Counted from the stretch's first letter, positions 1-28,905 are shown. The stretch is 64,000 nt of DNA from an uncultured Eubacteriales bacterium (GCA_964580435.1 CAZOKP010000004.1:14824-78823), one strand, 5' to 3'. Notes: generated from the letters alone by a model not told the origin. Numbers and translations are program-made.

Positions 1-987
1 TCACCGCCCGGACATGAAAGACTCTTGCAGTCCTCTTTGTTCAAGGCCCGCTTCGGAGGAGGGGAGGCTAACGTAGCCGTTGCTCTCGCCTTTCTTGGCC
101 ACGCCGCGAGGTATATTTCCGTTATTCCGCCAAATGATATCGGCGACGCCGCAGTGGCAGAGTTGCGAAGATGGGGCGTAGAAACGGGGTTTATCCTGCG
201 GCAAGGGAAAAGGCTGGGTCTGTATTTTGCTGAGACCGGGGCCAATCAACGGCCCTCAAAAATTATCTATGACAGGGAGCATTCGGCTATGGCCGAAACA
301 AGGAAACGAGATATCAAATGGGACAAGGCTTTGAGCGGTGTGGAGTGGTTCCACACGACAGGGATCACACCGGCTCTAAGTTCATCGGCCGCTGATTTGA
401 CTCTCGAGGCGGTTAGAAAAGCAAAAGAAAACGGCCTGGTCGTCTCTGTCGATCTTAATTTTAGGGAAAAGCTCTGGAAATATGGGAAAGCGGCGCCTGA
501 AGTAATGCGGGAGGTCGTCAGATTTGCCGATGTCGTTATGGGGAACGAAGAGGACTGCCAGAGATCCCTGGGTCTCAATACTGAGGCTGACATCATGGGA
601 GGAAAATTGAACCTGGCCGTCTATGAAAAACTAACGGCTGATGTTTTCAAAATGTTCCCCAACCTCAACAAGCTGGCCATCACGCTGCGGGAAAGCCATT
701 CTGCCGATCACAACAGCTGGTCTGCCGTCCTTAGAACCGGGCAGAAATTCATCGTCGGGTCCAAGTATGAAATCACCCATGTTGTCGATAGAATCGGCGC
801 GGGCGATGCCTTTGCCGCCGGCTTGATTCACGGCCTCGATCTTTTCGGCGATGATGCGAAAGCCCTGGAATTTGCTATCGCTTCCTCCTGCCTTAAGCAT
901 TCCATCCCGGGCGACTTCAACCTCGTTTCGGAAAAAGAGGTCTTGGCTCTGATGCATGGCAATAGTTCAGGAAGGGTCCAAAGGTGA
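1..987 (+). CDS. kdgK: 2-dehydro-3-deoxygluconokinase (PfkB family), 5' end truncated by the window edge
   Basis: The reading frame is open from nt 1 (SPPGHERLLQSSLF... precedes the listed Met). PfkB signature GAGDAFAAGLIHGL lies near the C-terminus. KDG-kinase-like N-terminal GGGEANVAVALA. Confidence 0.8.
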   Translation, partial: SPPGHERLLQSSLFKARFGGGEANVAVALAFLGHAARYISVIPPNDIGDAAVAELRRWGVETGFILRQGKRLGLYFAETGANQRPSKIIYDREHSAMAETRKRDIKWDKALSGVEWFHTTGITPALSSSAADLTLEAVRKAKENGLVVSVDLNFREKLWKYGKAAPEVMREVVRFADVVMGNEEDCQRSLGLNTEADIMGGKLNLAVYEKLTADVFKMFPNLNKLAITLRESHSADHNSWSAVLRTGQKFIVGSKYEITHVVDRIGAGDAFAAGLIHGLDLFGDDAKALEFAIASSCLKHSIPGDFNLVSEKEVLALMHGNSSGRVQR

Positions 988-1653: not shown

Positions 1654-4014
1654 ATGAAATGTCCAAAGTGTCAATTTGAAAATACCGAGGATTCGTTTTT
1701 CTGCAAGGAGTGCGGGACCAAACTGCCTCTTTCCGATGGAGTTCTTTATTCCCAGACTAAGACTATTCAAGCCTCTCCGGAAATCCTTGATCCAGGGAGC
1801 CCCGTTGCCGGAAAGTACAAAATCATTTCTGAGATTGGCAGTGGCGGAATGGGCATTGTGTATAAAGCAGAGGACACAAAACTCCGGCGGACTGTCGCCC
1901 TGAAGTTTCTGCCGCCCGAGCTCAGCCGCCATCCCGAAGCTAAGGAACGATTTATGCGGGAGGCGCACACCGTTGCTGCGCTCGATCATCCCCATATCTG
2001 CACGATTTTTGAAGTGGGAGAGTACGAGGACACAGCTTTTATTGCGATGGCCTATGTCGAGGGCCAGAGTCTCAGAGAAAAGGTGGCCAAGCAGCCGCTC
2101 GCTTTTGGGGAGGCGGTGGACATCGCTATTCAGGCAGCGGAAGGCTTGGAAGAAGCCCATAACAAAGGAATTATCCATCGTGATGTCAAGAGCGCGAATA
2201 TCATGATAACGGACAAGGGCCAGGCGAAGATCATGGATTTTGGCTTAGCCAAGGTCATCGGAGAATCGCTGATTACCAAAGAAGCCAAGACCATGGGGAC
2301 AGTGGCCTATATGTCACCGGAGCAGGCCAGAGGTGAGGTTGTTGACCAGCGCTCGGATATTTGGTCCCTGGGGGTCGTCCTCTACGAGATGCTGGCCGGC
2401 CGGCTCCCCTTTCGAGGAGACCACGACCAGTCCGTCATCTTCTCCATCCTTCATCAAGAACCGGAGCCCCTGGCTAAAGCCCGACCCGGCACTGCACCCG
2501 AACTGGAGCATGTCGTCGGACATGCGCTATCCAAGAAGATGGCCGACCGCTACCAGAGCATGGACGAGTTCCGGGAAGACCTCTCCGCCATCGCCGAGGG
2601 CCTTAAACCGCTCAAAGCCAAGGCCAGGCCCGCCGCGATCAAGCTGGCCGTGCTTCCGTTCGCCAACCTGACCGGCAATCCCGAGGAGGATTACCTGAGC
2701 GACGGCCTGACCCAGGAGATGATCGCCCGACTTGGGCGGCTTCATCCCCAGAGTCTCAGCGTCATCGCCCGAACGTCGGTCATGCGCTACAAGAAGACCG
2801 AAGCGCCCGTCGACCAGATCGGCCGCGAGCTCGGCGTGGACTATGTCCTCGAGGGGAGCGCCCAGCGGGAAGGGGGCCGGGTTCGCATCATCGCCGAGCT
2901 CATCCAGGTCCGGGACCAGATCCAGCTCTGGGCGGACATTATCGAGCGGGAGATGTCCGGCATCCTGGCCCTGCAAAACGACGTGGCGGAGAAAGTGGCC
3001 AAGGCCCTGGCCCTGAAGCTCCTCCCGGCCGAGCAGGCGCGTCCGGTCAATCCCGAAGCCTACGAGGCCTATCTCAAAGGCCTTCAGCACAGCTATAAAC
3101 TCCTTCCGGCCGATCTGGACACGGCGCTTCAGTATTTTGAACGGGCCCTTCAGAAGGACCCGGACTACGCGCTGGCCTACTCAGGCATCTCCTTTGTTTG
3201 GGGATGCCGTCAACAGATGGGGCTTACGCCACCGAAAGAGGCCACGCCCAAAGCTAAGGCGGCGGCACAGAGGGCCTTGGCCCTGGATGATACCGTCGCG
3301 GCAGCGCATTACGCGCTGGCGGTCATCATGGCTTGGGGCGATTGGGATTGGACCGGCGCCGAGACGGAGTTCAAGCGCGCCATCGAGCTCGATCCGAACT
3401 TCCCTGACGCGCGGATCTACTACTCGCACGTGTTGAGCATTACGGGGCGGCCTGAGGACGCACTGGCGGAGGTGGAGCGGGCCCTGGAACTGGACCCCTT
3501 CAATTCTCTCTTTCAGAGTCTCGCAGCCGCGGTCTTCCTCTTGGCGCACCGGTACGACGAAGCCATTGCTTATGCCCGCAGCGCGCAGCGAACGAACGCG
3601 GACGATCCCGTCGCTCACAACATCCTCCAGGTATGCTTTTTCATGAAAGGAATGTACGAAGAGGCGTTCGAGGAATGGAAAGCCATGTGGAACACTCCCT
3701 TATACGGCAATCGTGACGTCGCAGAAGCCCTCGATCGGGGGTACGCGGAAGCAGGCTTTGCGGGCGCCATGAGGCAGGCAACGGAGGCGTGGGCCAAAGT
3801 GGTCTATGAACGGGGTGAGCCATGGTACCTCGCGCTGGCTTATGTCATGGCCGAGGACAAGGAGCGCGCCCTGGAGTGGTTAGAGAAAGGCTTCGAGCTG
3901 CACGATGCGAACATGGCTTATCTCGGTTTTCCGGGTTTTGACAGCGTGTGCTCCGAGCCGCGCTTCCAGGAACTGCGGCGCCGGATGAATCTGCCTACAG
4001 AAGAAAAGAAATAA
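1654..4014 (+). CDS. Ser/Thr protein kinase with N-terminal zinc ribbon, TolB-N-like domain and C-terminal TPR repeats
   Basis: CPKCQFEN...CKECG zinc ribbon. Hanks kinase motifs GSGGMGIVYKA, VALKFL, HRDVKSANIM, DFGLAK, SPEQ. The AVLPFANLTGNPEEDYLSDGLTQEMI segment is a TolB-N-like module. The C-terminal part is rich in TPR-like repeats. RBS GGGAGAAAG upstream. Confidence 0.85.
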   Translation: MKCPKCQFENTEDSFFCKECGTKLPLSDGVLYSQTKTIQASPEILDPGSPVAGKYKIISEIGSGGMGIVYKAEDTKLRRTVALKFLPPELSRHPEAKERFMREAHTVAALDHPHICTIFEVGEYEDTAFIAMAYVEGQSLREKVAKQPLAFGEAVDIAIQAAEGLEEAHNKGIIHRDVKSANIMITDKGQAKIMDFGLAKVIGESLITKEAKTMGTVAYMSPEQARGEVVDQRSDIWSLGVVLYEMLAGRLPFRGDHDQSVIFSILHQEPEPLAKARPGTAPELEHVVGHALSKKMADRYQSMDEFREDLSAIAEGLKPLKAKARPAAIKLAVLPFANLTGNPEEDYLSDGLTQEMIARLGRLHPQSLSVIARTSVMRYKKTEAPVDQIGRELGVDYVLEGSAQREGGRVRIIAELIQVRDQIQLWADIIEREMSGILALQNDVAEKVAKALALKLLPAEQARPVNPEAYEAYLKGLQHSYKLLPADLDTALQYFERALQKDPDYALAYSGISFVWGCRQQMGLTPPKEATPKAKAAAQRALALDDTVAAAHYALAVIMAWGDWDWTGAETEFKRAIELDPNFPDARIYYSHVLSITGRPEDALAEVERALELDPFNSLFQSLAAAVFLLAHRYDEAIAYARSAQRTNADDPVAHNILQVCFFMKGMYEEAFEEWKAMWNTPLYGNRDVAEALDRGYAEAGFAGAMRQATEAWAKVVYERGEPWYLALAYVMAEDKERALEWLEKGFELHDANMAYLGFPGFDSVCSEPRFQELRRRMNLPTEEKK

Positions 4015-4027
4015 CAGGAGACGGGCG

Positions 4028-7000
4028 ATGAAGTGTCCCAAATGCCATTCCGATAATCCCGATACGTCCCGGTTTTGCGGAAATTGTGCGGCCCTGCTTG
4101 CACAGGAAGGGCAGCTTTTCGATTCCCTGACGAAGACATTGGCGACGCCTCTTCCTGTCTTATCGAAAGGCAGCCTCATTGCCGGAAAATACCGGATCCT
4201 TGAGGAAATCGGCCAGGGCGGGATGGGGATCGTCTATAAGGCCGAGGATCTGAAGCTCAAGCGCTATGTGGCCCTAAAGTTCCTTCCTCCCCATCTCATG
4301 AACTTGCCCGAGCTCAAGGATAGGTTCCTGATCGAGGCCCAGGCGGCCGCAGCCCTTTCCCACCCGAATATCTGCGTCATCCACGAAGTAAGAGAAAGCG
4401 ACGAAGATCCTTACATTGCGATGGAGTACGTGGAAGGGGAAACGCTCCGGGATAAGATTATGAAAGGGCCCCTAAAGACTGAGGAGGCCCTGACAATCGC
4501 GAGCCAGGTCGCCGCCGGGCTTGGCGAGGCCCACCGCAAGGGCATCATCCACCGGGACATCAAGAGCGCCAACATCATGGTTACTGATAAAGGCCAGGCC
4601 AAGGTCATGGACTTCGGGCTGGCCAAGCTCCGGGGCGGGTCGTCGCTGACGAAGAGCCAGACGACGCTGGGCACGGTCGCCTACATGTCGCCGGAGCAGG
4701 CCCAGGGCGAGGAGGTCGACGGCCGGACGGACCTCTGGTCGCTCGGCGTCGTCCTCTACGAGATGCTTACGGGCGAACTCCCGTTCAAAGGCGACCGGGA
4801 CCTCTCGATCATCCATTCCATCATCCACGAAGATCCGAAGCCGATCAAGGTCCGCAAGCCGCCGGTGCCCGAGGAGTTGCAACTGGTTATCGCCCGGACG
4901 CTCAAGAAGAACCGCAATTCGCGTTACGGCTCTGCCCAGGAAATCCTGAAGGACTTGAGGAAATACGAAGAGGCGGTCCGGGCAGAGGCGGCCGGTGTGT
5001 TTAACCTGCGATCGCTCTTGAAGCGCCTGCGCCGGCCGGTGGTGGCGATTCCCGCAGCCCTGACGTTGGTTGCGATTGCGGCCGCGGCCGTCTGGTTCTT
5101 CAAGCATCAGGCCAAGGTCCGCTGGGCCAGGGAGATCGCCATCCCGGAGATCGAGCGGATGATCGAGGAGAACGACGTGTGGCGGAATCTTGTCGCGCCC
5201 TACCGGCTCGCGGAAAAAGCCGAGGCCATCATCCCGCGCGACGCCAGGCTGGCCGAGCTCTTTTCGAAATGCTCTCTGAACATCAATGTTAAGACAGAGC
5301 CTCCAGGTGCGAAGATTTACATTAAGGATTACGACGCGCCGGAAAGTGAATGGTCCTATCTCGGCGTCTCGCCGATCGAAAAGATCAGACTGCCCATCGG
5401 AGTCTTCAGATGGAAAATTGAAAAAGACGGCTACGAGACCGTTCTGGCCGCATCGTCCAGCTGGGATACGGGAGGTCGTATCGGCAAGCCCGGTTTCGTC
5501 ATTCCCTATGACCTCGTAAGAGTCCTTGATAAGACCGGAAGCGTTCCACCGGGAATGGTGCGGGTCCAAGGTGCAGAAACGGCCATCGGGAAACTGGGTG
5601 ATTTCTACATCGACAGGTATGAGGTCACCAACAGGCAATTCAAGGAGTTCATCGACAAGGGCGGCTATAGAAACAAGGAGTACTGGAAACTCAGTTTCAC
5701 CAAAAGCGGAAAAGATCTGACCTGGGAAGAAGGAATCAAAGAGTTCGTCGATCCGACGGGTCAATCCGGCCCTTCCATATGGCTGGCGGGGGATTATCCC
5801 GAGGGCGGGGGCGATTATCCAGTTTCAGGCATCAGCTGGTACGAGGCCGCGGCGTATGCGGAATGGGCCGGAAAGAGCCTGCCGACGATGGTTCACTGGG
5901 AGATAGCCAGAGGCCAGTACACTCCGATGGTGCGCGTTTTCCAATTGGGGGGCCTCGCCATCTTTGCGCCTTTCAGTAATTTCTCCGGCAATGGCCCCGT
6001 TGCGGTGGGAAGCCTTCCGGGCATTACGCCCTTCGGGGTCTTTGACATGGCGGGGAATGTACGGGAATGGTGCTTGAATGAGACCCCGATGGGTAGACTC
6101 GTCCGAGGCGGCGCCTGGGACGACAATACATACGAATTCGGGAATCGGCGGCAGGCTCCTCCCATGGATCGCTCCGCTAAGAACGGATTTCGGTGTGCTC
6201 TTTATCCCAAGCGAGAGGAGATCCCCGCAGCGGCGTTTCAACTTGAAAAACTCGCGGTGTTCAGGGATTTTTACAAAGAAACGCCGGTTCCGGACCCTGT
6301 TTTTCAGGTTTACAAGGAGCAGTTTTCCTACGACAAGACAGACTTGAGGGCACGCGTCGAATCGCAGCAGGAAAGCCCCGGAGGCTGGATTCGGGAGAAG
6401 ATCACCTTCGACGCCGCCTATGGCGGCGAGCGGGTCATGGCCTATCTCTTTCTTCCCGGCAACGCCTCGCCTCCGTATCAAACTGTGATCTATTTCCCCG
6501 GCAGCGCCTCTCTAACAACAAAATCGAGCGAAGACCTCGAGAACTATTATGAATTCCCGATGTTCCTTTCTTTTATCGTTAAAAACGGCCGGGCTGCCCT
6601 TTATCCTGTCTATAAGGGAACATTCGAGCGCGGAAATCCTGCCTTGATCCCTATCCATATTGGTACCGATACTCATGCCTATACCGAATTCCTGATTCAA
6701 ATCGTCCAAGATTTCAGGAGATGCATCGACTACCTGGAAACGCGGACGGACATCGACAGAAACAGGATTGCCTATTACGGCATGAGTTGGGGCGGGAGAC
6801 TCGGCGCGATCATCCCGGCCGTGGAGGACCGCATCAAAGCAAGTGTCTTAGTGGGAGGCGGCATGGGAGGGCGAGCGAGCCGCCCTGAATCCTCTGTGCT
6901 CAACTATGTGACCCGAGTGAAAATACCGACCCTGATGTTGAACGGCAGGTACGATGCCGGTCTCGAGATAGGCATCAAGCCTATGTTCGACCTGCTTGGA

Positions 7001-7120
7001 ACTCCCGCAGAGCACAAACAATTCAAGTTATACGACACCGACCACATCCCCCCGAGGACCGAGTACATCAAGGAAACCCTGGCCTGGCTGGACAAGTACC
7101 TGGGGCCGGTGAAGAGATAA
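4028..7120 (+). CDS. multidomain Ser/Thr protein kinase: zinc ribbon, kinase, TM helix, PEGA, FGE-sulfatase-like (SUMF1/DUF323) and alpha/beta-hydrolase domains
   Basis: CPKCHSDN...CGNC zinc ribbon. Kinase motifs GQGGMGIVYKAED, HRDIKSANIM, DFGLAK. Hydrophobic segment VVAIPAALTLVAIAAAAVWFF. PEGA-like NINVKTEPPGAKIYIKDYD. FGE-like GISWYEAAAYAEWAGKSLPT...GNVREWC...RGGAW...FRCA. C-terminal GMSWGG nucleophile elbow. Confidence 0.8.
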   Translation: MKCPKCHSDNPDTSRFCGNCAALLAQEGQLFDSLTKTLATPLPVLSKGSLIAGKYRILEEIGQGGMGIVYKAEDLKLKRYVALKFLPPHLMNLPELKDRFLIEAQAAAALSHPNICVIHEVRESDEDPYIAMEYVEGETLRDKIMKGPLKTEEALTIASQVAAGLGEAHRKGIIHRDIKSANIMVTDKGQAKVMDFGLAKLRGGSSLTKSQTTLGTVAYMSPEQAQGEEVDGRTDLWSLGVVLYEMLTGELPFKGDRDLSIIHSIIHEDPKPIKVRKPPVPEELQLVIARTLKKNRNSRYGSAQEILKDLRKYEEAVRAEAAGVFNLRSLLKRLRRPVVAIPAALTLVAIAAAAVWFFKHQAKVRWAREIAIPEIERMIEENDVWRNLVAPYRLAEKAEAIIPRDARLAELFSKCSLNINVKTEPPGAKIYIKDYDAPESEWSYLGVSPIEKIRLPIGVFRWKIEKDGYETVLAASSSWDTGGRIGKPGFVIPYDLVRVLDKTGSVPPGMVRVQGAETAIGKLGDFYIDRYEVTNRQFKEFIDKGGYRNKEYWKLSFTKSGKDLTWEEGIKEFVDPTGQSGPSIWLAGDYPEGGGDYPVSGISWYEAAAYAEWAGKSLPTMVHWEIARGQYTPMVRVFQLGGLAIFAPFSNFSGNGPVAVGSLPGITPFGVFDMAGNVREWCLNETPMGRLVRGGAWDDNTYEFGNRRQAPPMDRSAKNGFRCALYPKREEIPAAAFQLEKLAVFRDFYKETPVPDPVFQVYKEQFSYDKTDLRARVESQQESPGGWIREKITFDAAYGGERVMAYLFLPGNASPPYQTVIYFPGSASLTTKSSEDLENYYEFPMFLSFIVKNGRAALYPVYKGTFERGNPALIPIHIGTDTHAYTEFLIQIVQDFRRCIDYLETRTDIDRNRIAYYGMSWGGRLGAIIPAVEDRIKASVLVGGGMGGRASRPESSVLNYVTRVKIPTLMLNGRYDAGLEIGIKPMFDLLGTPAEHKQFKLYDTDHIPPRTEYIKETLAWLDKYLGPVKR

Positions 7121-7131
7121 AGGCGGGAGCC

Positions 7132-10100
7132 ATGTCCGTAGAGTGTCCGAAATGCCATTCTGAGAATAACGATAACTCGCGGTTCTGCAGCAACTGCGCC
7201 ACGCCGTTGAGCAAGGCGGGGCTGGAAGGAGTGTCCCTAACCAGAACTCTGGAGACGCCGCTTCAAATCATTTCGAAAGACAGCCTCATTGCCGGAAAAT
7301 ACCGGATCCTTGAGGAAATCGGCCAGGGGGGAATGGGAGTCGTTTACAAAGCCGAGGACATCAAGCTTAAACGTTCGGTGGCTCTGAAATTCCTCCCGCC
7401 GCACCTGATGAACTTGCCCGAGCTCAAGGAGCGGTTCCTGATCGAGGCCCAGGCGGCCGCCGCCCTCTCCCACCCGAATATCTGCGTCATCCATGAGGTC
7501 GGGGAGGCCGAGGACAGGTCCTTTATCGTCATGGAGTACGTGGAGGGGGAGACCCTTCGGGATAAGATCAAAAAAGGGCCCCTAAAGACCGAGGTCGCCC
7601 TCGACATCACGATCCAGATCGCAGCCGGCCTGGGCGAGGCCCACCGCAAGGGCATCATCCACCGGGACATCAAGAGCGCAAACATCATGGTGACGGACAA
7701 AGGCCAGGCCAAGGTCATGGACTTCGGGCTGGCCAAGCTGCGGGGCGGGAGCTCGCTTACCAAGAGCCAGACGACGCTGGGCACGGTGGCCTACATGTCT
7801 CCGGAACAGGCGCAGGGGGGAGAAATCGACCAACGCACCGACATCTGGTCCCTGGGCGTCGTGCTCTACGAGATGCTCATGGGTGAGCTTCCGTTTAAAG
7901 GTGACCGTGACGTCTCGATCATCTACTCGATCGTCCATGAGGAGCCAAAGTCGCTCAAGATCCGGAAGCCTCCCGTCCCTGTGGAGCTGCAGCAGGTCAT
8001 CGCCCGGGCCCTCAAGAAGAACCGGGAAGCCCGCTATGGCTCCGCCGACGAAATGCTGAGAGACCTAAGGGCTTACCAATCCTCCGCACAGCTCGCAGAG
8101 TCCGGGGTCCTGAGCCTAAAGATGATCGGTCGCCGCCTCAGGAAGCCGCGGGTCGCCATTCCCACGGTCGTCGCACTTATTGCCCTGGCTTTTCTCGGCA
8201 CCATGTTTTTCAAGCACCAGGCCCAGGTCCGCTGGGCCAGGCAGGTGGCTCTTCCGGAGATTCAGAGGCTTATCGAGGGAAATGACTGTTGGCGCAATCT
8301 CATACCCGTCTATAAACTCGCGGAAAAGGCGGAAGCTTACATTCCGCACGATCCCAAGCTGGCCGGGCTTTTTTCGAAATGCTCCTTGAAGGTCAACATC
8401 AAAACCGAACCTCCCGGCGCCAAGATCTTTATGAAAGAATACATGGCCCCGGAGAGCGATTGGACGTATCTCGGAGTTTCGCCGATCGAAAAGATCCGGC
8501 TGCCCATCGGGGTTTTCAGATGGAAAATCGAAAAAGACGGCTATGAGACGGTTCTGGCGGCCGCTTCCACCTGGAATGGAGATATTGTGAGTCCTGAGAT
8601 TATTGTTCCCTATGATATTGTGAGAATCCTGGACAATAAGGAAAACATTCCGCCGGGCATGGTGCGGGTCACGGGAGCGGAAACGGCTGACGGCAAGCTG
8701 GATGATTTTCTTATCGATACTTATGAAGTGACGAATAAGCAATATAAGGAATTCGTCAACGGCAGCGGATACAGGAACAAGAAATACTGGACGCAGAAAT
8801 TCGTCAAGGACGGAAGAGAGCTGACCTGGGAGGACGCGGTCAAGGGATTCGTCGACCAAACGGGGCTTCCCGGCCCGGCCGGATGGCAGGCAGGAGATTA
8901 TCCCGAAGGACAGGCAGATTATCCGGTGTCGGGAATCAGTTGGTACGAGGCGGCGGCCTATGCGGAATTCTCCGGGAAAAGCCTGCCGACGGGAAATCAT
9001 TGGGGGATCGCGAGGGGCGAATATACGCCGATGATTCAATATCCGCAGCTCGGGGGTTTCGCCCTTTTAGCTCCTTTCAGCAATTTTCTGGGGAAGGGCC
9101 CGGTTGCCGTAGGGAGTCTCCCGGGGGTAACGGCCTACGGGGCTTTTGACATGGCCGGGAACGTGAGGGAATGGTGCTGGAACAAAACTCCGAAAGGACG
9201 TGTCATCAGGGGCGGCGCCTGGGGAGAGAACACCTACATGTTCGACAATATGAGTCAAGCGCCGGCCATGGACCGTTCCGCCAAGAACGGGTTCCGTTGC
9301 GCCCTTTATTTTGAGCCGGAGAAAATCCCAGGGTCGGCGTTTCAAATGGTCAAGTCCTTGGGCCTTCCCCTGATAGGTGAAACGGAAGATTTCGCCAAGC
9401 AAGAACCGGTCCCCGATTCCATTTTTCAGGTCTACAAAGAACAGTTTTCGTACGATAAAACCGATTTGAAGGCCCGCGTGGAATCGAAGAAGGAAAGCCC
9501 CGAATGGACTCTGGAAAAGATCAGTTTTGAGGCCGCCTACGGCGGCGAACGGATCATGGCCTATCTTTTTCTTCCCAAGAACGCTGTGCCGCCCTATCAG
9601 TCCGTCATCTATATGGGCGGCGACGCTCCCGTGTTTCAGCGGTCGAGCCAGGACATCGAGACCTATTATGAAGTCCCCATGTTCTTTTCTTTTCTCGTCA
9701 AAAACGGACGGGCGGTCCTCTATCCCGTCTATAAGGGATTCTTCGAGCGCGGGAATGATGCCTTGATTTCTATCATCGAGGGCAGCTGGGCTTCCGTGCA
9801 GTGGAAAGAAGTCTTCATTCAACAGGTCAAGGACCTCAGAAGAGGCATCGACTATCTAGAAACCCGCCCGGATATCGACAGCCGGAAGCTCGCCTTTGAG
9901 GGAATGAGCTACGGATCGGGACTCGCGCCCGTCATCCTGGCCGTGGAGGAGCGCCTCAAGGTCGACGTTCTTTTGGCCGGAGGCTTCGGCCTCATGGGAG
10001 AGGGACGCCCCGAAGTGAATCAAATCAACTATGTCACCCGGGTGAAAACACCCACCCTGATGTTGAACGGCAAATACGACTCGTTTTTTCCGCCCGAGAC

Positions 10101-10248
10101 ATCATCAAAACCGATGTTCGATCTCTTGGGGACTCCGGCCAAAGACAAGGATCAGAAATTTTACGAAACCGACCATATCCCACCCATGAACGAATACGTC
10201 AAAGAAACCTTGCGCTGGCTGGATAAATACCTGGGGCCGGTGAAATAA
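7132..10248 (+). CDS. multidomain Ser/Thr protein kinase, tandem paralog of the preceding gene (zinc ribbon, kinase, TM, PEGA, FGE-like, alpha/beta hydrolase)
   Basis: Same architecture and long identical peptide stretches as 4028-7120 (for example LIAGKYRILEEIGQGGMG, VALKFLPPHLMNLPELK). Some nucleotide segments are identical. GMSYGSG nucleophile elbow at the C-terminus. Confidence 0.8.
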   Translation: MSVECPKCHSENNDNSRFCSNCATPLSKAGLEGVSLTRTLETPLQIISKDSLIAGKYRILEEIGQGGMGVVYKAEDIKLKRSVALKFLPPHLMNLPELKERFLIEAQAAAALSHPNICVIHEVGEAEDRSFIVMEYVEGETLRDKIKKGPLKTEVALDITIQIAAGLGEAHRKGIIHRDIKSANIMVTDKGQAKVMDFGLAKLRGGSSLTKSQTTLGTVAYMSPEQAQGGEIDQRTDIWSLGVVLYEMLMGELPFKGDRDVSIIYSIVHEEPKSLKIRKPPVPVELQQVIARALKKNREARYGSADEMLRDLRAYQSSAQLAESGVLSLKMIGRRLRKPRVAIPTVVALIALAFLGTMFFKHQAQVRWARQVALPEIQRLIEGNDCWRNLIPVYKLAEKAEAYIPHDPKLAGLFSKCSLKVNIKTEPPGAKIFMKEYMAPESDWTYLGVSPIEKIRLPIGVFRWKIEKDGYETVLAAASTWNGDIVSPEIIVPYDIVRILDNKENIPPGMVRVTGAETADGKLDDFLIDTYEVTNKQYKEFVNGSGYRNKKYWTQKFVKDGRELTWEDAVKGFVDQTGLPGPAGWQAGDYPEGQADYPVSGISWYEAAAYAEFSGKSLPTGNHWGIARGEYTPMIQYPQLGGFALLAPFSNFLGKGPVAVGSLPGVTAYGAFDMAGNVREWCWNKTPKGRVIRGGAWGENTYMFDNMSQAPAMDRSAKNGFRCALYFEPEKIPGSAFQMVKSLGLPLIGETEDFAKQEPVPDSIFQVYKEQFSYDKTDLKARVESKKESPEWTLEKISFEAAYGGERIMAYLFLPKNAVPPYQSVIYMGGDAPVFQRSSQDIETYYEVPMFFSFLVKNGRAVLYPVYKGFFERGNDALISIIEGSWASVQWKEVFIQQVKDLRRGIDYLETRPDIDSRKLAFEGMSYGSGLAPVILAVEERLKVDVLLAGGFGLMGEGRPEVNQINYVTRVKTPTLMLNGKYDSFFPPETSSKPMFDLLGTPAKDKDQKFYETDHIPPMNEYVKETLRWLDKYLGPVK

Positions 10249-12383: not shown

Positions 12384-13559
12384 ATGAGCCAACAAGATAG
12401 CTTCTGGAACAGGAATTTTCTTCTGGCCCTGCTCGGCTACTTTTTCCTGTTTATGAGCGTCAGCCTGTTCTTCATTTTCCCGCTCTTTTTGAAGCAGTTT
12501 AATCCGTCCGAGAGCCGCGTCGGTCTGATCATGGGGATTTTCAGCTTGATGGCCATATTTATCCGCCCCTTTTTTGGACGATTGATTGATGTCCGTGGCA
12601 GAAAACAGGTCTCGCTCCTCGGCATCGGGCTGATGTTCCTCGTTTTGCCGCTCTTCCATTTTATCAAGGACGCCGGCCTCTATCCGATCATTCTGAGGGC
12701 CCTCGCCGGTCTCGGTTGGGGAATCAGCATGACCGCTACGATTACCATCTGTTCAGATCTCGCACCGGTCGAGAAACTGGCCCATTCGATGGGCATTGTG
12801 GGAGTGGCCGGCCTCATATCCAGCGCTTTAGGTCCGGTGATTGCTGAAGAAATTGTGAACCGGTTTGGCTTCCCGGGCCTTTTTCTGGCGAGTTCGGTCT
12901 TTCTCGCGGCGGCATTCTTATGCATCCTGGCGACAAGAGAAGCGGCCAGGCCTTGTCTCCCTGAAGAAAAATCCAAGGTTGATGTTCTTAAGAGCCTTTC
13001 CCTGTTTACTCTTTTGCTCATCGGTTCCCTTCCAGTTTTTCACGGCGCCGTGAGGAGCGCGGTTGTCTATTTCATCGCTTTGTTCGCGCGGTCCATTTCA
13101 ATACATAGAATCGGCCCGTTTTTTGTGACTTTTTCTGCCGCCGCCATCATGACGCGCCTATGGATAGGGGACATCTCCGACCGCTACGGCCGCAAACAGG
13201 TCATCTTCCCTTCGGCAATAATCATCAGCCTGAATTGCGTCTTGATCTCCCAGGTCCGCAACCCCTGGATGTTTCTTCTGGCAGGGTTTATCGGCGGGTT
13301 CGGGCAGGGGTTGATTTTTCCTGCGCTCAGCACTTATATCATCGATATCCTCGGCCGCGAGAACAAGGGCTTCGCCCTCAGCCTCTACCTTTCCCTTTTT
13401 GACGTGGGCATGGGCTTGGGATCGCCTTTCTTCGGCTGGATATCCGACCTTTTCGGCTACCGCAGGATGTATCTCTTTGCCGGGGCATTCCTCTTTCTCT
13501 TCAGCATTCTCTTCACCCTCAAAGCACCCGCTCTGAAGGGCGCTCAGACTCCCAAATAG
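12384..13559 (+). CDS. MFS transporter
   Basis: 391 aa, about 12 hydrophobic segments. MFS loop motif GRLIDVRGRKQV between TM2 and TM3, with a repeat in the second half (DRYGRKQV). Confidence 0.75.
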   Translation: MSQQDSFWNRNFLLALLGYFFLFMSVSLFFIFPLFLKQFNPSESRVGLIMGIFSLMAIFIRPFFGRLIDVRGRKQVSLLGIGLMFLVLPLFHFIKDAGLYPIILRALAGLGWGISMTATITICSDLAPVEKLAHSMGIVGVAGLISSALGPVIAEEIVNRFGFPGLFLASSVFLAAAFLCILATREAARPCLPEEKSKVDVLKSLSLFTLLLIGSLPVFHGAVRSAVVYFIALFARSISIHRIGPFFVTFSAAAIMTRLWIGDISDRYGRKQVIFPSAIIISLNCVLISQVRNPWMFLLAGFIGGFGQGLIFPALSTYIIDILGRENKGFALSLYLSLFDVGMGLGSPFFGWISDLFGYRRMYLFAGAFLFLFSILFTLKAPALKGAQTPK

Positions 13560-13612
13560 AAGTTATGTCTGCGGGATGTTTGCTGGAGGGGCCCAGAGAA
13601 AATACTGATCCT

Positions 13613-16339
13613 TTAGAAAATCAGCCTGATTCCGACTCTGGCCTGGCGCGGATTAACCAGGCTGTAGAGCTCATGCCCATCTGTGGAGGGATAAGCCCCC
13701 GGGATCCAGTCGTAGCCGATGAGCGTGCCCCAGCTGGTTATGGTGTTGTCATTGAAGACGTTGAAGACGTCGACGAGCAAACCGAGATGGTACTTGTTAG
13801 CCAGGGTGAAAACCTTCTCCAGCCTGAGGTCAAGAAGATTCGCCATCTGGTAATGATTGGAACCCCTGGGCTCTGTGAAGAAAGTGACCGTTCCCTGGTT
13901 GAGTCTCTCTGTCCTGTATCGTGTCGTCCAGGTATTTCCCGAAATCCCGTGGTAATAGGCGCTGAGGGAGATGCCAAACGGCAAGACGTAGGTGCCCTGA
14001 ATTTTAATCTGGCTGGTGGGGTCATAGGTCGGGTGGCCGTCGGCGTTGATCCAAAAGTTTGGGTCGGAAGTATTGAGGTCGTCGCGGCCGTTCCAGCCGA
14101 TATCATTAGCAAACTGGTTATCCATAGTCCCACTGGCCTGGGAATAAACGTAGGATAGGATCAGCTGCCATTTGTTGGAGAAGCGCTTGTTGAAGAGGAA
14201 TTCAATGGCCCAGTACTTGCGGTAAGGATTGTCGAGGATATAGGGCTGCTCCTTTTTGAGGTTGGCGATGATGTATTCATGGGTGTCGACAGTCGCGAAT
14301 GTCCGTTGATAAACCTCGTAAGTTTTCTCCAAGTCGGGGACGTCAACGGAGTAAGGCTCGTAGTCGGCCCGGAGGTCATACAGGCCGATGATATCATTCC
14401 ATTCTCGGTTGATGTAGGTGATTCCCAAAGAGGCATCCTTAAACAGCTCTCTTTCGATCCCGATCATGAATTGGGTCATGTAGGGCAGCTTGATATCATA
14501 GGCCAGCTGGTAAAGGCCTTGGGGCGTGGTGCGTGTGAATTCGATATACTCCTGCAATTCGCTATCCCAATAGTAGCCAATGTAGTCACTGAATGCCGCG
14601 GGAGGATTCAGCCTGTCAAATAGAGTGGTATACATGCCTTCCGCATACTGGCCGTAATGAGCTTTGAGGACCGTGCTCTTGTCGCCGAGGAGGTCGACCG
14701 TGAAACCTATGCGTGGGTCCAGCCGGAATGTGTTAAAGACCGCGCCATCGACTTCCTGGACCTTACCCCAGTTCTGGCTGAGCCGGAGTCCGGCGTTGAT
14801 GTTGAACCGTGGGGTGATCTGCCAGGAATCTTGGGCAAAGGCATCGACCCGCGTGAAGGAGGAGTTGAGGTCGTAGCCGACATACTGGTAGGCGAGATAC
14901 GGCTCGTTGTAATAATCAAAATAATAGATATTCGCGGGGCCGGTATAGCCAAATTGGTTTCTGACAGAGGCGTGTTCGATCTCCACGCCAAATTTGAAAT
15001 CGTGATCGCCGGCGATGAAATCCTCGGCATAATGGCTGAAGGAGGCATTGGCCTGGAGCCGGCTCCGGTCATTATTACTGAAATACCCGGCGCTCTCCGT
15101 CAGCTCATTTGTGCCGTAATCAAAATGGCCGGAGACGTTTCCGGCTTTCGGTTCGAGGTGAAGATATCCCCAGAAGTAGGCGAGTTGGAGGTTGAAGAAG
15201 CTCTCGGAGCTGAACATATGAGTCAGACTGAAATTCCCGATCACCTCGGGGGCTTTTTGGTCGAGGGTCGCCATGGGCGAGATGGCCGCGCCGGCCCCCC
15301 GGTTCGTCCCGTTGATGGCGTCAGCCTCGAGTGAGACGTTCATGCTGGTGTTGGGCGAAAACTGTGCGGTGAGCTTTCCAAAGAACCTGGGCTGAACATA
15401 GTTGATGGGCTCCGGAAAATCTGTGGGATAATCCCAATCTTCATTCCACTGCAGCCCGGAATAGAACCACAGCTTGTCCGTTTTTAAGGGGCCACCGATT
15501 TGGGCGTTGATGTCGACCGATTGGGTCATGGGAGAGGTGAGCCCCGGAAAATCATCGAAATAAGCGGCCTGGTTCGTTGTTCGCCAAAAGCCCTTCGGTT
15601 TCCCTTGAAAATCAAACTCGACCTGACCGTGGTATTCGTTCCCACCGGATTTGGTAATGAGGTTGAAGACGACGCCGGTGAAATTCCCGTATTCAGCCGG
15701 CAAGCCGACGCCCATAACCTTGGCTTCTCCGATGATATTATGATCTAGGTAGACCCAGACCGCTCCGGAATCCGGGTCGGATACATTGGCCCCGTCCAGC
15801 ATCCAGGCGATTCCGGTTTCGCTCGATGCTCCGTAGGCCGTTCCGTCATTGACGCCGGGGGCCAGGTTGACGATGTCCGGAGTGAGCTGACTGTAGGGAA
15901 TGTTCCTCAGGAACTCGTTCGGGAGAGTAATGGAGGCGGTTTCCGTGGACGCCGTGTCGATCGTGGGCGGCCGGGAAATGACGGTTGTTTCTTCCTTGGC
16001 AGTCTTGAGTTTCATGCCGAAATCGACCGTCAGCCGCGCGGTCGTGGTCAAGCGGATATTTTCCCAGATGACCGTGGCAAAATCCTGGTGTTCGGCCTTA
16101 ACCGTGTATTGACCCGGAGGAAGAGCGGAGAATCTGTAGGAGCCGTCGCCTCCGGAGACGACGGTGCGGACGCCCATCAGACTGGGACTTGATACTGTAA
16201 TGGTCACGCCCCGAAGAGCGTTTCCTTGCGGGTTGTAAACCGTGCCGCCGATGGCGCCCGTTTCCTTGGACTGGGAGTAGAGGGCCGGTGAAAATATAAG
16301 AAGCCATACCAGAAATGTCAGAATGGACCGCGTTTTCAT
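13613..16339 (-). CDS. TonB-dependent receptor-like outer membrane protein with N-terminal carboxypeptidase-regulatory-like domain
   Basis: Probable start at MKTRSILTF (ATG 16339, preceded by GGAGGA); the listed ORF carries a 32-aa upstream extension. Signal peptide. CarbopepD_reg-like GTVYNPQGNALRGVTITVSS...GSYRFSALPPGQYTV. Large beta-rich body ending in a C-terminal aromatic residue (...GIRLIF), typical of outer membrane barrels. Confidence 0.7.
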   Translation of the reverse strand: MKTRSILTFLVWLLIFSPALYSQSKETGAIGGTVYNPQGNALRGVTITVSSPSLMGVRTVVSGGDGSYRFSALPPGQYTVKAEHQDFATVIWENIRLTTTARLTVDFGMKLKTAKEETTVISRPPTIDTASTETASITLPNEFLRNIPYSQLTPDIVNLAPGVNDGTAYGASSETGIAWMLDGANVSDPDSGAVWVYLDHNIIGEAKVMGVGLPAEYGNFTGVVFNLITKSGGNEYHGQVEFDFQGKPKGFWRTTNQAAYFDDFPGLTSPMTQSVDINAQIGGPLKTDKLWFYSGLQWNEDWDYPTDFPEPINYVQPRFFGKLTAQFSPNTSMNVSLEADAINGTNRGAGAAISPMATLDQKAPEVIGNFSLTHMFSSESFFNLQLAYFWGYLHLEPKAGNVSGHFDYGTNELTESAGYFSNNDRSRLQANASFSHYAEDFIAGDHDFKFGVEIEHASVRNQFGYTGPANIYYFDYYNEPYLAYQYVGYDLNSSFTRVDAFAQDSWQITPRFNINAGLRLSQNWGKVQEVDGAVFNTFRLDPRIGFTVDLLGDKSTVLKAHYGQYAEGMYTTLFDRLNPPAAFSDYIGYYWDSELQEYIEFTRTTPQGLYQLAYDIKLPYMTQFMIGIERELFKDASLGITYINREWNDIIGLYDLRADYEPYSVDVPDLEKTYEVYQRTFATVDTHEYIIANLKKEQPYILDNPYRKYWAIEFLFNKRFSNKWQLILSYVYSQASGTMDNQFANDIGWNGRDDLNTSDPNFWINADGHPTYDPTSQIKIQGTYVLPFGISLSAYYHGISGNTWTTRYRTERLNQGTVTFFTEPRGSNHYQMANLLDLRLEKVFTLANKYHLGLLVDVFNVFNDNTITSWGTLIGYDWIPGAYPSTDGHELYSLVNPRQARVGIRLIF

Positions 16340-16482
16340 TTTTCCTCCACGACCAGGTTTTCTGCACACCCTAATGTTCTGGATCAATCTCTTTGGCTGG
16401 CGCAAAATTATAGTCAATAAAAAAGGATTTTGCAATCCTTGGCCGACATGATAGAATGCCCAACTTAGGGAAGGGAAAGAGT

Positions 16483-18068: not shown

Positions 18069-19415
18069 TCATTCTCCGGCAACGGTAAGCTCTCCTATCT
18101 TGATCGTGGGACCGCAGACAGGTCCGCGAAACTCGAGGTCATTCCCGACCATCTCGACCTGGTTCAGGATTTTTTCCAGGTTTCCGGATATGGTGACCTC
18201 GGAGACAGGATAGGCGACCTCGCCGTCCTCGATCCATAATCCAAAAGCCCCCCGCGAGATATCCCCGTTCACGGAATTGAGACCGTGGCCGATCGTCCGG
18301 ATAAGGACGAAGCCTTTCTTGGTCGAGGAGATGATGTCTTGAGGAGGCGATGAGCCGCGGACAAGATAGAAGTTGTTCGGGCTGACGCCGGTGCCGTCCG
18401 CGTTTCCCGTGGACTGAAGCTTCAGCTTGCGGGCGGCATAAGTGTTGCAGACGTAGCTTCGGAGCACGCCTTTCTCGACGATCGTGGTTCTCCGGCAGGG
18501 CACGCCTTCACTGTCGAACGGTCTCGAGCCGAGCTTTCCAGGCATCAGGCCATCGTCAATGACCGTGATTTTATCATTCCCGATCCTCTGACCAAGCCTG
18601 TCGGCGAGAAAAGAGACTTTTTGGTAGACGGCCACGCCCGAGGCACAGGCGAACAAGAAGCCCAAAAGCCAAGCTGTCATGGGCGGCTCAAAGATGACGG
18701 GCACCGTCTGGGTTTGGATCTTCCGCGGGTTGAGCTGCCGGACCGTCCTCTCGACCGCCTTTTTTGCGATCGTCTCCGGGGATTCCAGGTTGTTAAAGAA
18801 CCTTTCCGTGGAAAACCAATAATCCTCGACTTTATCGTCTGTGCCGCCGGCCTGGAGCCCGACGCTCAGACTGCAGAACGTTTGGTCATAGGACCCGCTC
18901 AACCCCTTGGAATTGGCCAGGATCGTCGTGAACTCGTTCGTCACAAAACTTGCGCCATGCGAGTTAGTGATCCTTTTATCCGCGAGGGCAATCCGCTCTG
19001 TCTCGAGGGCAAGAGAGATTTTTTTGGCGGCCTCGAGCTCTTTTATTCTGGGGTCAAAGAGGTTCAGGGACGAGATATCGATGCCTTCTGTTGTTGGGGG
19101 AGGAAGACCGGCGCACACATCGCGGCTGCCGAACGCCGCCCTCTGGATGGCGCTCCGGACCAAATGCCTGAGCGTTTCTTTGGTGAGGTCGGAAGAGCTC
19201 GCGTAGGCCGTTTTCATGTCTTTTATAACTTTAAGGCCAAGATGTCTTGAGCCGGCTTCGACAAGGTTTTCGATCTTGCCGAGCCTGATATCAACGCCGA
19301 ATTCGGAGCCGTCGCCGATCGTGATTTCAGCTTCATCCGCTCCGCTTGACCTGGCGAAGACGACAAGACTTTCCGCCAGCCCACGGAGCTCAGCCGCCTG
19401 AGGATTTCCTTTCAT
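18069..19415 (-). CDS. pmbA: TldE/PmbA family metalloprotease
   Basis: 448 aa, TldD/PmbA fold pattern. Overlaps the upstream tldD by 4 nt, consistent with the usual tldD-pmbA pairing. Confidence 0.75.
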   Translation of the reverse strand: MKGNPQAAELRGLAESLVVFARSSGADEAEITIGDGSEFGVDIRLGKIENLVEAGSRHLGLKVIKDMKTAYASSSDLTKETLRHLVRSAIQRAAFGSRDVCAGLPPPTTEGIDISSLNLFDPRIKELEAAKKISLALETERIALADKRITNSHGASFVTNEFTTILANSKGLSGSYDQTFCSLSVGLQAGGTDDKVEDYWFSTERFFNNLESPETIAKKAVERTVRQLNPRKIQTQTVPVIFEPPMTAWLLGFLFACASGVAVYQKVSFLADRLGQRIGNDKITVIDDGLMPGKLGSRPFDSEGVPCRRTTIVEKGVLRSYVCNTYAARKLKLQSTGNADGTGVSPNNFYLVRGSSPPQDIISSTKKGFVLIRTIGHGLNSVNGDISRGAFGLWIEDGEVAYPVSEVTISGNLEKILNQVEMVGNDLEFRGPVCGPTIKIGELTVAGE

Positions 19416-21914: not shown

Positions 21915-21992
21915 TTCATTTAGTTCGCTTTAAACATGCTCCCGGGTTCTGATAGAATAAGCGGACAGAGATTTCTTATCAAGGAGGACTGC

Positions 21993-27165: not shown

Positions 27166-27242
27166 AGTTCTATCCTCAATTCGCCGTAAATATACACAAG
27201 GAGTGACGGTCTGACAAGCATAAAAATGCGACCCGCAATCAT

Positions 27243-27272
27243 TTCCAAAACTCTCAGAAATTATGCTATAAT
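27243..27272 (+). promoter_or_regulatory. putative serS promoter giving a leaderless or near-leaderless mRNA
   Basis: TATAAT at 27267-27272 lies only 8 nt before the serS ATG (27281). A possible -35, TTCCAA, lies 18 nt upstream. There is no Shine-Dalgarno sequence between them. Confidence 0.35.
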
Positions 27273-27280
27273 CAGCCCCA

Positions 27281-28728: not shown

Positions 28729-28823
<95 letters not shown>

Positions 28824-28905
28824 TCTTAATCCCCTAAACGGGTCTTGTTTATTTCCGTTCGATGTTTTTGGAAGAACAAAGATCATTTTCAGGAGGGAGA
28901 GTGCC

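Follow-up and report, generated by a model that had tools for sequence, protein, structure and literature searches.

Domain organization of the three kinases

Near the beginning of a 64,000-nucleotide (nt) stretch of DNA from an uncultured Eubacteriales bacterium (GCA_964580435.1, CAZOKP010000004.1:14824-78823; hereinafter, the window), three consecutive genes encode putative serine/threonine kinases (STKs) that are denoted here K1, K2 and K3 in the order of the genes. The features of these genes and of their neighbors are listed in Table 1, with coordinates counted from the first letter of the window. K2 and K3, the main subject of this analysis, share the same architecture, in which the kinase is followed by a single transmembrane (TM) helix and a large C-terminal region ending in a predicted alpha/beta-hydrolase domain; K1 has a different C-terminal part.

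The N-termini of all three proteins carry the motif C-x2-C-x10-C-x2-C, followed by a Hanks kinase domain (Pfam Pkinase, E-values of 5e-52 to 5e-54), an arrangement correctly recognized in the preliminary description of this DNA, which was made from the sequence alone. The zinc ribbon is also found in 55 of the 57 complete close homologues. The catalytic core of the kinase domain is complete in K1, K2 and K3, including the GxGxxG, VALK, RFxxE, HRDxKSAN (HRDxKxxN), DFG and SPE motifs and a Thr-rich activation loop. Because this core is intact, all three proteins should be active kinases rather than pseudokinases.

Table 1. The kinase genes, their predicted domains and the adjacent genes (aa, amino acids).
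Feature	Coordinates	Strand	Basis
PfkB-family sugar kinase, KDG-kinase-like, 320 aa listed	25-987	+	Pfam PfkB, E 2.1e-30
KDPG/KHG aldolase (eda), 210 aa	1009-1641	+	Pfam Aldolase PF01081, E 1.1e-49
K1, 786 aa	1654-4014	+	Open reading frame and domain scans
K1 zinc ribbon, aa 3-20	1660-1713	+	Motif; DZR 25.7 bits, under cut-off of 27.3
K1 kinase domain, aa 55-301	1816-2556	+	Pfam
K1 FlgO/TolB-N-like module, from LAVLPF motif at aa 331	about 2638-2973	+	Profile search
K1 TPR region	about 3046-4011	+	Pfam/NCBIfam TPR families
K2, predicted single-pass receptor kinase, 1030 aa	4028-7120	+	Open reading frame and domain scans
K2 zinc ribbon, CPKC-x10-CGNC	4034-4087	+	Pfam Zn_Ribbon_1, 25.7 bits (cut-off 25)
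K2 Hanks kinase domain, all catalytic motifs	4190-4951	+	Pkinase, E 1.7e-53
K2 TM helix, aa 338-356	5039-5095	+	KD19 2.35, sole such segment of the protein
K2 juxtamembrane helical bundle (stalk) and PEGA-like beta-sandwich, aa 361-480	5108-5467	+	PEGA, E 0.002, under Pfam cut-off
K2 FGE-sulfatase-like domain, aa 522-724, lacking the catalytic Cys pair	5591-6199	+	PF03781, E 7.5e-28
K2 alpha/beta-hydrolase domain	6395-7117	+	Family profile against PDB
K2 triad S920, D976, H1006	6785-6787, 6953-6955, 7043-7045	+	Alignment
K3, old K2 paralogue of the same architecture, 1038 aa	7132-10248	+	Open reading frame and domain scans
K3 zinc ribbon	7144-7197	+	Pfam Zn_Ribbon_1, 27.8 bits (cut-off 25)
K3 kinase domain	7300-8058	+	Pfam
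K3 TM helix, aa 341-359	8152-8208	+	Hydropathy, KD19 ~2.3, single segment
K3 FGE-like domain	8689-9303	+	PF03781, E 1.4e-25
K3 hydrolase domain, triad S926, D983, H1015	about 9514-10245	+	Alignment
CocE/NonD (Peptidase_S15) hydrolase, 695 aa	10257-12344	+	TIGR00976, E 1.4e-62; PF02129, E 3.2e-47
MFS transporter, 391 aa, final gene of the co-directional run	12384-13559	+	MFS_1, E 2.9e-51
Outer-membrane protein, 940 aa, CarboxypepD_reg and beta-barrel, convergent	13613-16435	-	Gene calls and family scans

The predicted extracytoplasmic region of K2 and K3

The kinase needs ATP and therefore has to be cytoplasmic; since one TM helix follows it, the approximately 670 C-terminal residues of K2 and K3 are predicted from hydropathy to be extracytoplasmic. 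The membrane-proximal stalk and the PEGA-like part form the most confident region of the AlphaFold2 model of this ectodomain, with a predicted local distance difference test (pLDDT) score that is mostly between 84 and 94 for this block; the Pfam match to PEGA is weak in both proteins. The matches to the FGE-sulfatase family exceed the Pfam gathering score in both, and in a comparison with PDB the domain of K2 is similar to EgtB (E = 2.4e-13) and to the formylglycine-generating enzyme (FGE; 3e-10), with the matches ranging from 2e-13 to 4e-10. In the alignment to the Thermomonospora curvata FGE (5nxl), the sequence GGSFLCHESYCNRY is opposite GGAW-----DDNTY of K2, so that the active-site segment with the LCHESYC cysteines (GGSFLCHESYC) falls at a gap or is replaced (GGAW-----DD). 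No cysteine is present in K2 or K3 in the part aligned with the copper-binding C-terminal CxxxxC segment of this enzyme, and the family consensus at this position is GGAWxDPxY. With the segment containing the active-site cysteine pair deleted or replaced, the domain is predicted to retain the FGE-sulfatase fold and cannot be a formylglycine-generating enzyme. Thus, of the domains that the preliminary description had assigned to K2 and K3, the TM helix, the FGE-like domain and the hydrolase with its GxSxG elbow hold, whereas PEGA is represented by a weak match.

The last 240-280 residues of K2 and K3 comprise the alpha/beta-hydrolase domain, with a nucleophile elbow of the form GMSWG or GMSYG. 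A profile of 14 family members run against PDB matched 8b4u (E = 2.8e-8), an MHETase (1.2e-7), PETases, cutinases and also 9pjb, and in these alignments the nucleophile elbow, the acid and the histidine all line up. Among K2, K3 and 150 representatives of clusters of homologues (see below), Ser is conserved in all 147 aligned sequences, Asp in 140 of 145 and His in 144 of 145, with the representatives being only 40-57% identical to K2, except for one partial-length match. The hydrolase domain therefore is apparently catalytically competent, and such conservation of the triad indicates that the hydrolase chemistry matters.

The family affiliation of this hydrolase is less clear-cut. Many homologues of the K2 tail carry precomputed matches to PF01738, PF12740 or PF00326; for the proteins of the window, the Pfam scores are 17.2 bits for AXE1 and, for DLH (PF01738), 19.7 bits in K2 and 16.3 bits in K3, against a cut-off of 21 in both families. 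In Foldseek searches, the best matches of the AlphaFold2 ectodomain model were the CE7 acetyl-xylan esterases and cephalosporin-C deacetylases (3fvr, 1odt; E = 1.4e-10, target TM-score of about 0.63), and this resemblance is tentative because the structure models are weak. Although the modeled fold and the profile matches point to CE7 and to dienelactone-hydrolase- and PETase-like enzymes, with Ser, Asp and His aligned, membership in CE7 (AXE1) was considered and rejected: the signature motifs of that family, RGQ, GxSQG and HE, are missing in K2 and K3, which instead have FERGN, GMSWG or GMSYG, and DH-I, with the catalytic His followed by Ile rather than by Glu.

Abundance of the ectodomain and diversity of the fused output domains

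The preliminary description had considered the combination of an FGE-like fold with a serine hydrolase in a transmembrane kinase to be an unusual architecture. In terms of abundance, this is not the case. Of the 8,000 candidates scored in a search with the 631-residue tail of K2, 7,730 proteins matched with E <= 1e-3, and an exhaustive search among representatives of 50%-identity clusters gave 38,385 matches with E <= 1e-3, of which 1,791 have E <= 1e-30. The best 120 matches of the tail are 67-100% identical, align over essentially its full length and come mainly from metagenome-assembled genomes (MAGs) of Aminicenantes/Acidobacteriota; most of them are about 1,030 residues long, with hits to Pkinase and FGE-sulfatase and often also to DLH, PETase or S9. 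The Joint Genome Institute (JGI) annotation names such homologues 'serine/threonine protein kinase/dienelactone hydrolase'. The K2/K3 architecture thus appears to be abundant rather than rare and to belong to a very large receptor family, with thousands of sequences and several copies in single MAGs. Nevertheless, it is uncharacterized: in the literature on Aminicenantes kinases and on proteins combining Pkinase with FGE-sulfatase, no experimental work on this architecture was found.

A scan of GTDB species detected 61 loci, mostly in Aminicenantes, Terriglobia and Thermoanaerobaculia, with a minority in Gemmatimonadota, Caldithrix, Ignavibacteriales and Bacteroidota, and with several loci sharing one MAG. 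Acidobacteriota and Aminicenantes are abundant in soils and sediments and mostly uncultured, and there is little knowledge of how they sense their environment. Many MAG records with the closest homologues (L001, L003, L005 and others) are titled 'uncultured Eubacteriales bacterium', and the named close relatives are Aminicenantes or Aminicenantales; the taxonomy given in the titles seems to be either a placeholder or wrong. One match in a MAG labeled 'Micrarchaeota archaeon' (L042) and one protein labeled Helarchaeota (P0104) likely reflect binning contamination.

Nearly all of the best 150 cluster representatives, which are mostly 40-57% identical to K2, show a single continuous alignment that covers the 670-residue ectodomain entirely or for the most part, and their N-termini, classified by local phmmer searches, are diverse. 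A Hanks kinase is present in 95 of them (one of these also has a cyclase domain), a class III adenylate/guanylate cyclase in 14, a helix-turn-helix (HTH) domain in six, an OmpR/CadC-like winged helix in three and a TIR-like domain of the P0166 type in four; 16 remained unclassified, among them isolated examples of SARP/BTAD and AraC-type HTH, a more evident TIR and small forms with multiple TM segments, and a further 13 N-termini are shorter than 60 residues and may be fragments. The TIR-like, AraC-type HTH and SARP/BTAD assignments (P0166, P0206, P0200, P0163/P0216/P0236) were made by reading the sequences; there is no Pfam match in the N-terminus of P0166. Given that the joining of one extracytoplasmic unit to many outputs is a hallmark of sensor domains, the 670-residue ectodomain appears to be a portable sensor module.

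Age of the K2/K3 duplication and recombination in a related locus

Contrary to the high nucleotide identity and the recent duplication or gene conversion that were initially proposed for this pair, K2 and K3 are only 72.5% identical in nucleotide sequence and 70.5% in amino acid sequence, with NG86 estimates of 0.20 for nonsynonymous (dN) and 1.19 for synonymous (dS) divergence and a dN/dS ratio of 0.17. All domains are subject to purifying selection, with dN/dS values between 0.07 and 0.41 in paralogous and orthologous pairs and the highest values in the juxtamembrane/TM segment. The nearest relative found, the locus L001, with 83% identity in the tail, has the gene order kdgK-eda-A-B-CocE-MFS, with two kinases instead of three. 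In a codon alignment of K2, K3 and the L001 genes A and B, 224 informative sites join A with K2 and B with K3, compared with 49 sites that join the paralogues within each genome and 54 that support the third arrangement; dS between the orthologues is 0.77-1.0. This distribution of sites indicates that the duplication is older than the split from L001. The essentially equal length, identical architecture and head-to-tail arrangement of K2 and K3 might suggest a recent duplication or an assembly artefact, but this explanation is refuted by the divergence of the pair, the only 70-89% identity of the repeat segments found between the two genes, which rules out collapsed or expanded repeats, and the presence of the same pair, with orthologous relationships, in the independent L001 assembly.

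The prevalence of orthology sites also argues against concerted evolution over the full length of the genes. The only domain without orthology signal is the kinase domain (alignment columns 41-240; window positions 4150-4750 and 7250-7850), in which the three arrangements are supported by 6, 20 and 14 sites, respectively. In addition, in a stretch of 40 codons within the FGE-like domain (columns 521-560), the third arrangement (A with K3, B with K2) is favored by nine sites against one. Local exchange or gene conversion between the copies in these two regions is possible, and strong constraint could look alike.

Evidence of recombination comes from L001. The first approximately 45 residues of its first kinase (L001:2183-5278) show 88% identity to K1 and 42% to K2, whereas from about residue 80 the protein is K2-like, with 82-97% identity through the remaining kinase domain. 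This protein appears to be a chimera with a K1 head and a K2 body. The most economical explanation is that K1 and K2 recombined within their kinase domains and that 2.4 kb of DNA, comprising the body of K1 and the head of K2, was deleted as a result; the opposite scenario, in which the lineage of the window gained an insertion, would be less parsimonious. Recombination thus seems to be able to exchange the N- and C-terminal parts of neighboring kinase genes. Other Aminicenantes loci (L018, L022, L028, L044, L057 and L058) also contain arrays in which two to five kinases, with K1-type and K2-type tails mixed, lie in tandem.

K1, a soluble relative

In K1, hydropathy analysis detects no TM helix (maximum KD19 of 1.40). 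Of the two modules previously proposed for its C-terminal part, the TPR repeats are clear, with matches to TPR families and to 'TPR_END_plus', whereas the similarity of the preceding module to TolB-N is weak: a profile of this module (residues ~329-470) matches FlgO with E = 6.7e-5 and, weakly, LpoB (0.058) and TolB (0.12), and there is no Pfam TolB_N match in K1 at E <= 0.01. JGI names the homologues of K1 'TolB-like protein', and the TolB-N-like label is plausible at the level of fold class. Furthermore, residues 323-672 of K1 align to positions 116-461 of the HilA/EilA model (E = 7.6e-25; 87 bits against a cut-off of 589); HilA/EilA has an OmpR-type DNA-binding domain where K1 has the kinase, followed by a similar C-terminal module.

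In many relatives of K1, a TM helix separates the kinase from the LAVLPF module. The TM-containing segment, about 45 residues long in sister kinases such as L058:2692-5217, L020:6213-8789 and P0288, is missing from K1 (at residues 322-333, positions 2617-2650). The possibility that K1 is a one-off TM-deletion mutant is ruled out by the 48 of 94 scorable top homologues that lack the helix and show a fixed spacing of about 156 residues, the other 46 having it; the helix-less homologues include all the closest full-length ones (74-88% identity, 786-794 residues). K1 therefore appears to be a member of a conserved soluble subfamily, a sister family of the K2/K3 type, and the module that is periplasmic in the TM-containing relatives would be cytoplasmic in K1.

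Comparison with known receptor systems

Relative to known receptor kinases, K2 and K3 are a variant and not a different kind of system. With the PASTA kinases (PknB/Stk1/PrkC), they share the single-pass topology, and the kinase domain is closest to the corresponding model, NF033483, but the scores of 350-360 bits are under the cut-off of 450, only positions 2-279 of the 563 in the model are matched, and PASTA repeats are absent. The plant hydrolase receptors D14 and KAI2 employ hydrolase-receptor chemistry, and in the beta-lactam sensors BlaR1 and MecR1, an extracytoplasmic serine-enzyme-like domain reacts with the ligand and signals across the membrane within a single polypeptide. The latter have a class D beta-lactamase-like fold and a zinc protease output, in contrast to the alpha/beta-hydrolase and the kinase of K2/K3, and there is no sequence relationship between the two.

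The closest functional precedent, by analogy, would be RsbQ-PAS (RsbQ/RsbP in Bacillus subtilis), in which the output connected to an alpha/beta-hydrolase and a small domain is a phosphatase, a histidine kinase or a diguanylate cyclase (PMC3183031). As appears to be the case in K2/K3, sensing is the joint task of a triad-bearing hydrolase and a second domain, and this unit is combined with diverse outputs. However, RsbQ is a separate cytoplasmic protein that acts with PAS, whereas the hydrolase of K2/K3 is fused, predicted to be extracytoplasmic and accompanied by the FGE-like domain. Because the family profile retrieved from PDB, at E <= 0.01, neither RsbQ nor the related D14 and KAI2, the likeness to these proteins is one of analogy and not of membership.

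With respect to architecture, the closest described proteins are in the 'Proteo1' family of a preprint atlas of bacterial STKs, which lists the combination of a Hanks kinase with FGE-sulfatase and also includes forms with a TM segment only (10.1101/2025.01.12.632604). In these proteins, as in K2/K3, the FGE-sulfatase domain is C-terminal to the kinase; unlike those listed, K2 and K3 additionally possess a zinc ribbon at the N-terminus, the PEGA-like domain and, at the C-terminus, an alpha/beta-hydrolase whose triad is intact, and represent Aminicenantes/Acidobacteriota. No experimental study of any Proteo1-type kinase-FGE member was found in the searchable literature. Despite its name, the 'DLHK' group of the same atlas is not a family of dienelactone-hydrolase kinases related to K2/K3 but an unrelated family of pseudokinases, in which catalytic residues are replaced, whereas the motifs of K1, K2 and K3 are intact.

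Proposed mechanism and alternative explanations

Taken together, these observations make it probable that K2 and K3 are long-lived paralogous single-pass Hanks receptor kinases with an enzyme-containing periplasmic sensor that is a portable module. Under the proposed mechanism, the zinc ribbon and the kinase would reside in the cytoplasm and, beyond the single TM helix, the ectodomain of about 670 residues would consist of the helical stalk, the PEGA-like sandwich, a non-catalytic domain of the FGE/C-type-lectin-like type and a catalytically competent alpha/beta-hydrolase, in this order. An ester or amide compound outside the cytoplasm would bind to the ectodomain, where Ser920 (Ser926 in K3) would probably turn it over or trap it covalently, with the FGE-like domain aiding recognition. 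The ensuing change in the ectodomain, or an altered oligomeric state, could be relayed via the stalk and the TM helix, driving autophosphorylation of the activation loop and then phosphorylation of cytoplasmic targets. K1, which belongs to the same lineage-specific expansion of kinases, may act in parallel or downstream.

Several points weigh against this interpretation. The topology relies solely on hydropathy, and the AlphaFold2 model of the ectodomain, with a mean pLDDT of 65, is of moderate confidence and lends only weak support, whereas the model of the hydrolase alone, built from 14 sequences, had a pLDDT of 38.5 and was discarded. The Pfam scores of the hydrolase at the family level are all below the gathering cut-offs. 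The conservation of the triad would be equally expected if the tail were simply a membrane-anchored enzyme. Furthermore, no conserved partner, such as a phosphatase or an FHA protein, was found across the 61 loci.

A more far-reaching version, which is tentative and clearly less likely than the receptor assignment as such, is that the ectodomain defines a large, undescribed periplasmic class of 'enzyme-receptors', in which the signal would be the reaction itself, an environmental ester or amide being hydrolyzed at the conserved Ser or captured there covalently, as in D14/KAI2/RsbQ or BlaR1. This class would be wired to at least seven types of output, among them Ser/Thr kinases, adenylate cyclases, several DNA-binding domains and TIR-like domains, and tandem arrays like K1-K2-K3 would diversify by recombination of kinase domains, as the L001 chimera suggests. 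If hydrolysis is indeed part of sensing, the system would be a periplasmic counterpart of the hydrolase-receptor principle of RsbQ and D14/KAI2 and would offer a route to the ligand; the natural fusions of the ectodomain to cyclases could then serve as ready cAMP reporters for ligand screens.

Among the alternatives, the one that survives best, albeit doubtful, is that the tail is primarily a membrane-anchored periplasmic esterase or peptidase for nutrient processing, with the kinase tuning or reporting its activity, or with the fusion having no role in sensing. The strict conservation of the triad, the modeled resemblance of the fold to carbohydrate esterases, the presence of sugar-acid and rhamnosidase genes in the window and the adjacent secreted CocE/NonD hydrolase are all compatible with such a role. 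However, the same ectodomain is linked to at least seven unrelated cytoplasmic signaling or DNA-binding outputs, which is typical of sensors and not of metabolic enzymes, and the carbohydrate-related context is not conserved across the 61 loci.

A second and less probable alternative is that the kinase genes are joined with kdgK-eda, CocE and MFS in one functional operon that regulates the catabolism of 2-keto-3-deoxygluconate (KDG) or uronates. The PfkB-family sugar kinase gene, eda, K1, K2, K3, the CocE/NonD gene and the MFS gene comprise a run of co-directional genes on the plus strand that are separated by gaps of 21, 12, 13, 11, 8 and 39 nt. As the preliminary description had stated, the kinase genes directly follow kdgK-eda with minimal spacing (12 nt between eda and K1, 13 nt between K1 and K2, and 11 nt, slightly less than the 12-13 nt given there, between K2 and K3), and the secreted CocE/NonD hydrolase, with a signal-like N-terminus (hydrophobic segment at residues 6-24), comes immediately after K3, at a distance of 8 nt. 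Purine-rich, Shine-Dalgarno-like stretches (GGAG/AGGA-like) are present in the gaps upstream of eda, K1, K2, K3 and CocE, and a scan of the window for terminator-like sites revealed none at the junctions of this run. Judging from the spacing, co-transcription of the run is plausible, and L001 has the same gene order.

What makes the metabolic operon improbable is the comparison of loci. L001 is about 80% identical in nucleotide sequence over the kinase genes, so that shared ancestry explains the common context, and it lacks the body of K1. Of the 61 loci, L001 alone again contains kdgK, eda and MFS, CocE/NonD is found near the kinases in four loci, and clustering of all open reading frames (ORFs) revealed no recurrent neighbor genes except for K1-type kinases, in 12 loci. 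Even L021 and L040, which have the closest K3-type tails found (86% and 85% identity, respectively), have different neighbors, with no match to kdgK, eda, CocE or MFS. With this context limited to L001, a functional link of the kinases to kdgK-eda or KDG metabolism is unsupported by the comparison of loci. The kinase genes of the window thus appear to be ordinary family members, with neither a recent duplication nor a proven link to sugar-acid metabolism to set them apart.

It is quite unlikely that the hydrolase domain is a pseudo-enzyme used for binding only, as in neuroligin-type domains: the low Pfam scores at the family level and the adjacent FGE-like domain, which already lacks catalysis, might point in this direction, but the residues of the triad and the GxSxG elbow hardly vary among proteins with only 40-57% overall identity. 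An anti-phage defense kinase system (PD-T4-6, MADS or PglW-like) is a far-fetched explanation, because the matches to the PADLOC PD-T4-6 models, with E-values down to 1e-100, and to the NCBIfam MAD6 and PglW models are limited to the generic kinase domain (about residues 48-330), the NCBIfam scores are far under the cut-offs (170 against 460 and 73 against 990), no further defense components are present, and the neighbors are housekeeping genes.

Other genes in the window

The genes upstream of K1 correspond to the kdgK-eda pair of the preliminary description (E-values of 2e-30 for PfkB and 1e-49 for the KDPG/KHG aldolase). The window begins inside the PfkB-family, KDG-kinase-like gene (1-987), for which the TTG at position 25 is merely the first start codon past the edge, chosen mechanically; its orthologue in L001 is 342 residues long. 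The NCBIfam KDG/KDGal kinase models match this protein with scores under the cut-offs, and the best NCBIfam match, also under the cut-off, is to the kinase half of the 'KHG/KDPG aldolase/sugar kinase fusion protein' model (E = 3.7e-132). At the other end of the run, a 197-residue ORF (13565-14158, plus strand) shows no family match and lies almost wholly within the convergent gene for the outer-membrane protein; it is probably spurious and not a gene, so that the co-directional run ends at the MFS gene.

The remainder of the window is an ordinary chromosomal region with genes for tRNA synthetases, the glycine cleavage system, PmbA/TldD, rhamnosidases and ABC transporters; no PP2C phosphatase or FHA gene was seen among the annotated genes of the window. 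Two alpha-L-rhamnosidase genes, of the GH78 type (E = 8.5e-108) and the GH106 type (E = 3.9e-21), are encoded within 20 kb of kdgK-eda (21936-24653 and 28780-32052, both on the plus strand), which hints at the use of pectin or rhamnogalacturonan. The window contains two further tandem pairs of paralogues, namely PmbA/TldD-family metallopeptidases of 448 and 471 residues (18069-20827, minus strand) and proteins of 655 and 636 residues with DUF3857 and transglutaminase-core domains (41868-45742, plus strand). Finally, for a 596-residue ORF (25804-27594, minus strand), the Pfam search gave no match at E <= 1e-3; about 300 nt at the 5' end of this ORF are shared with the gene for seryl-tRNA synthetase (27281-28552, plus strand), so that the true start is probably located further downstream.

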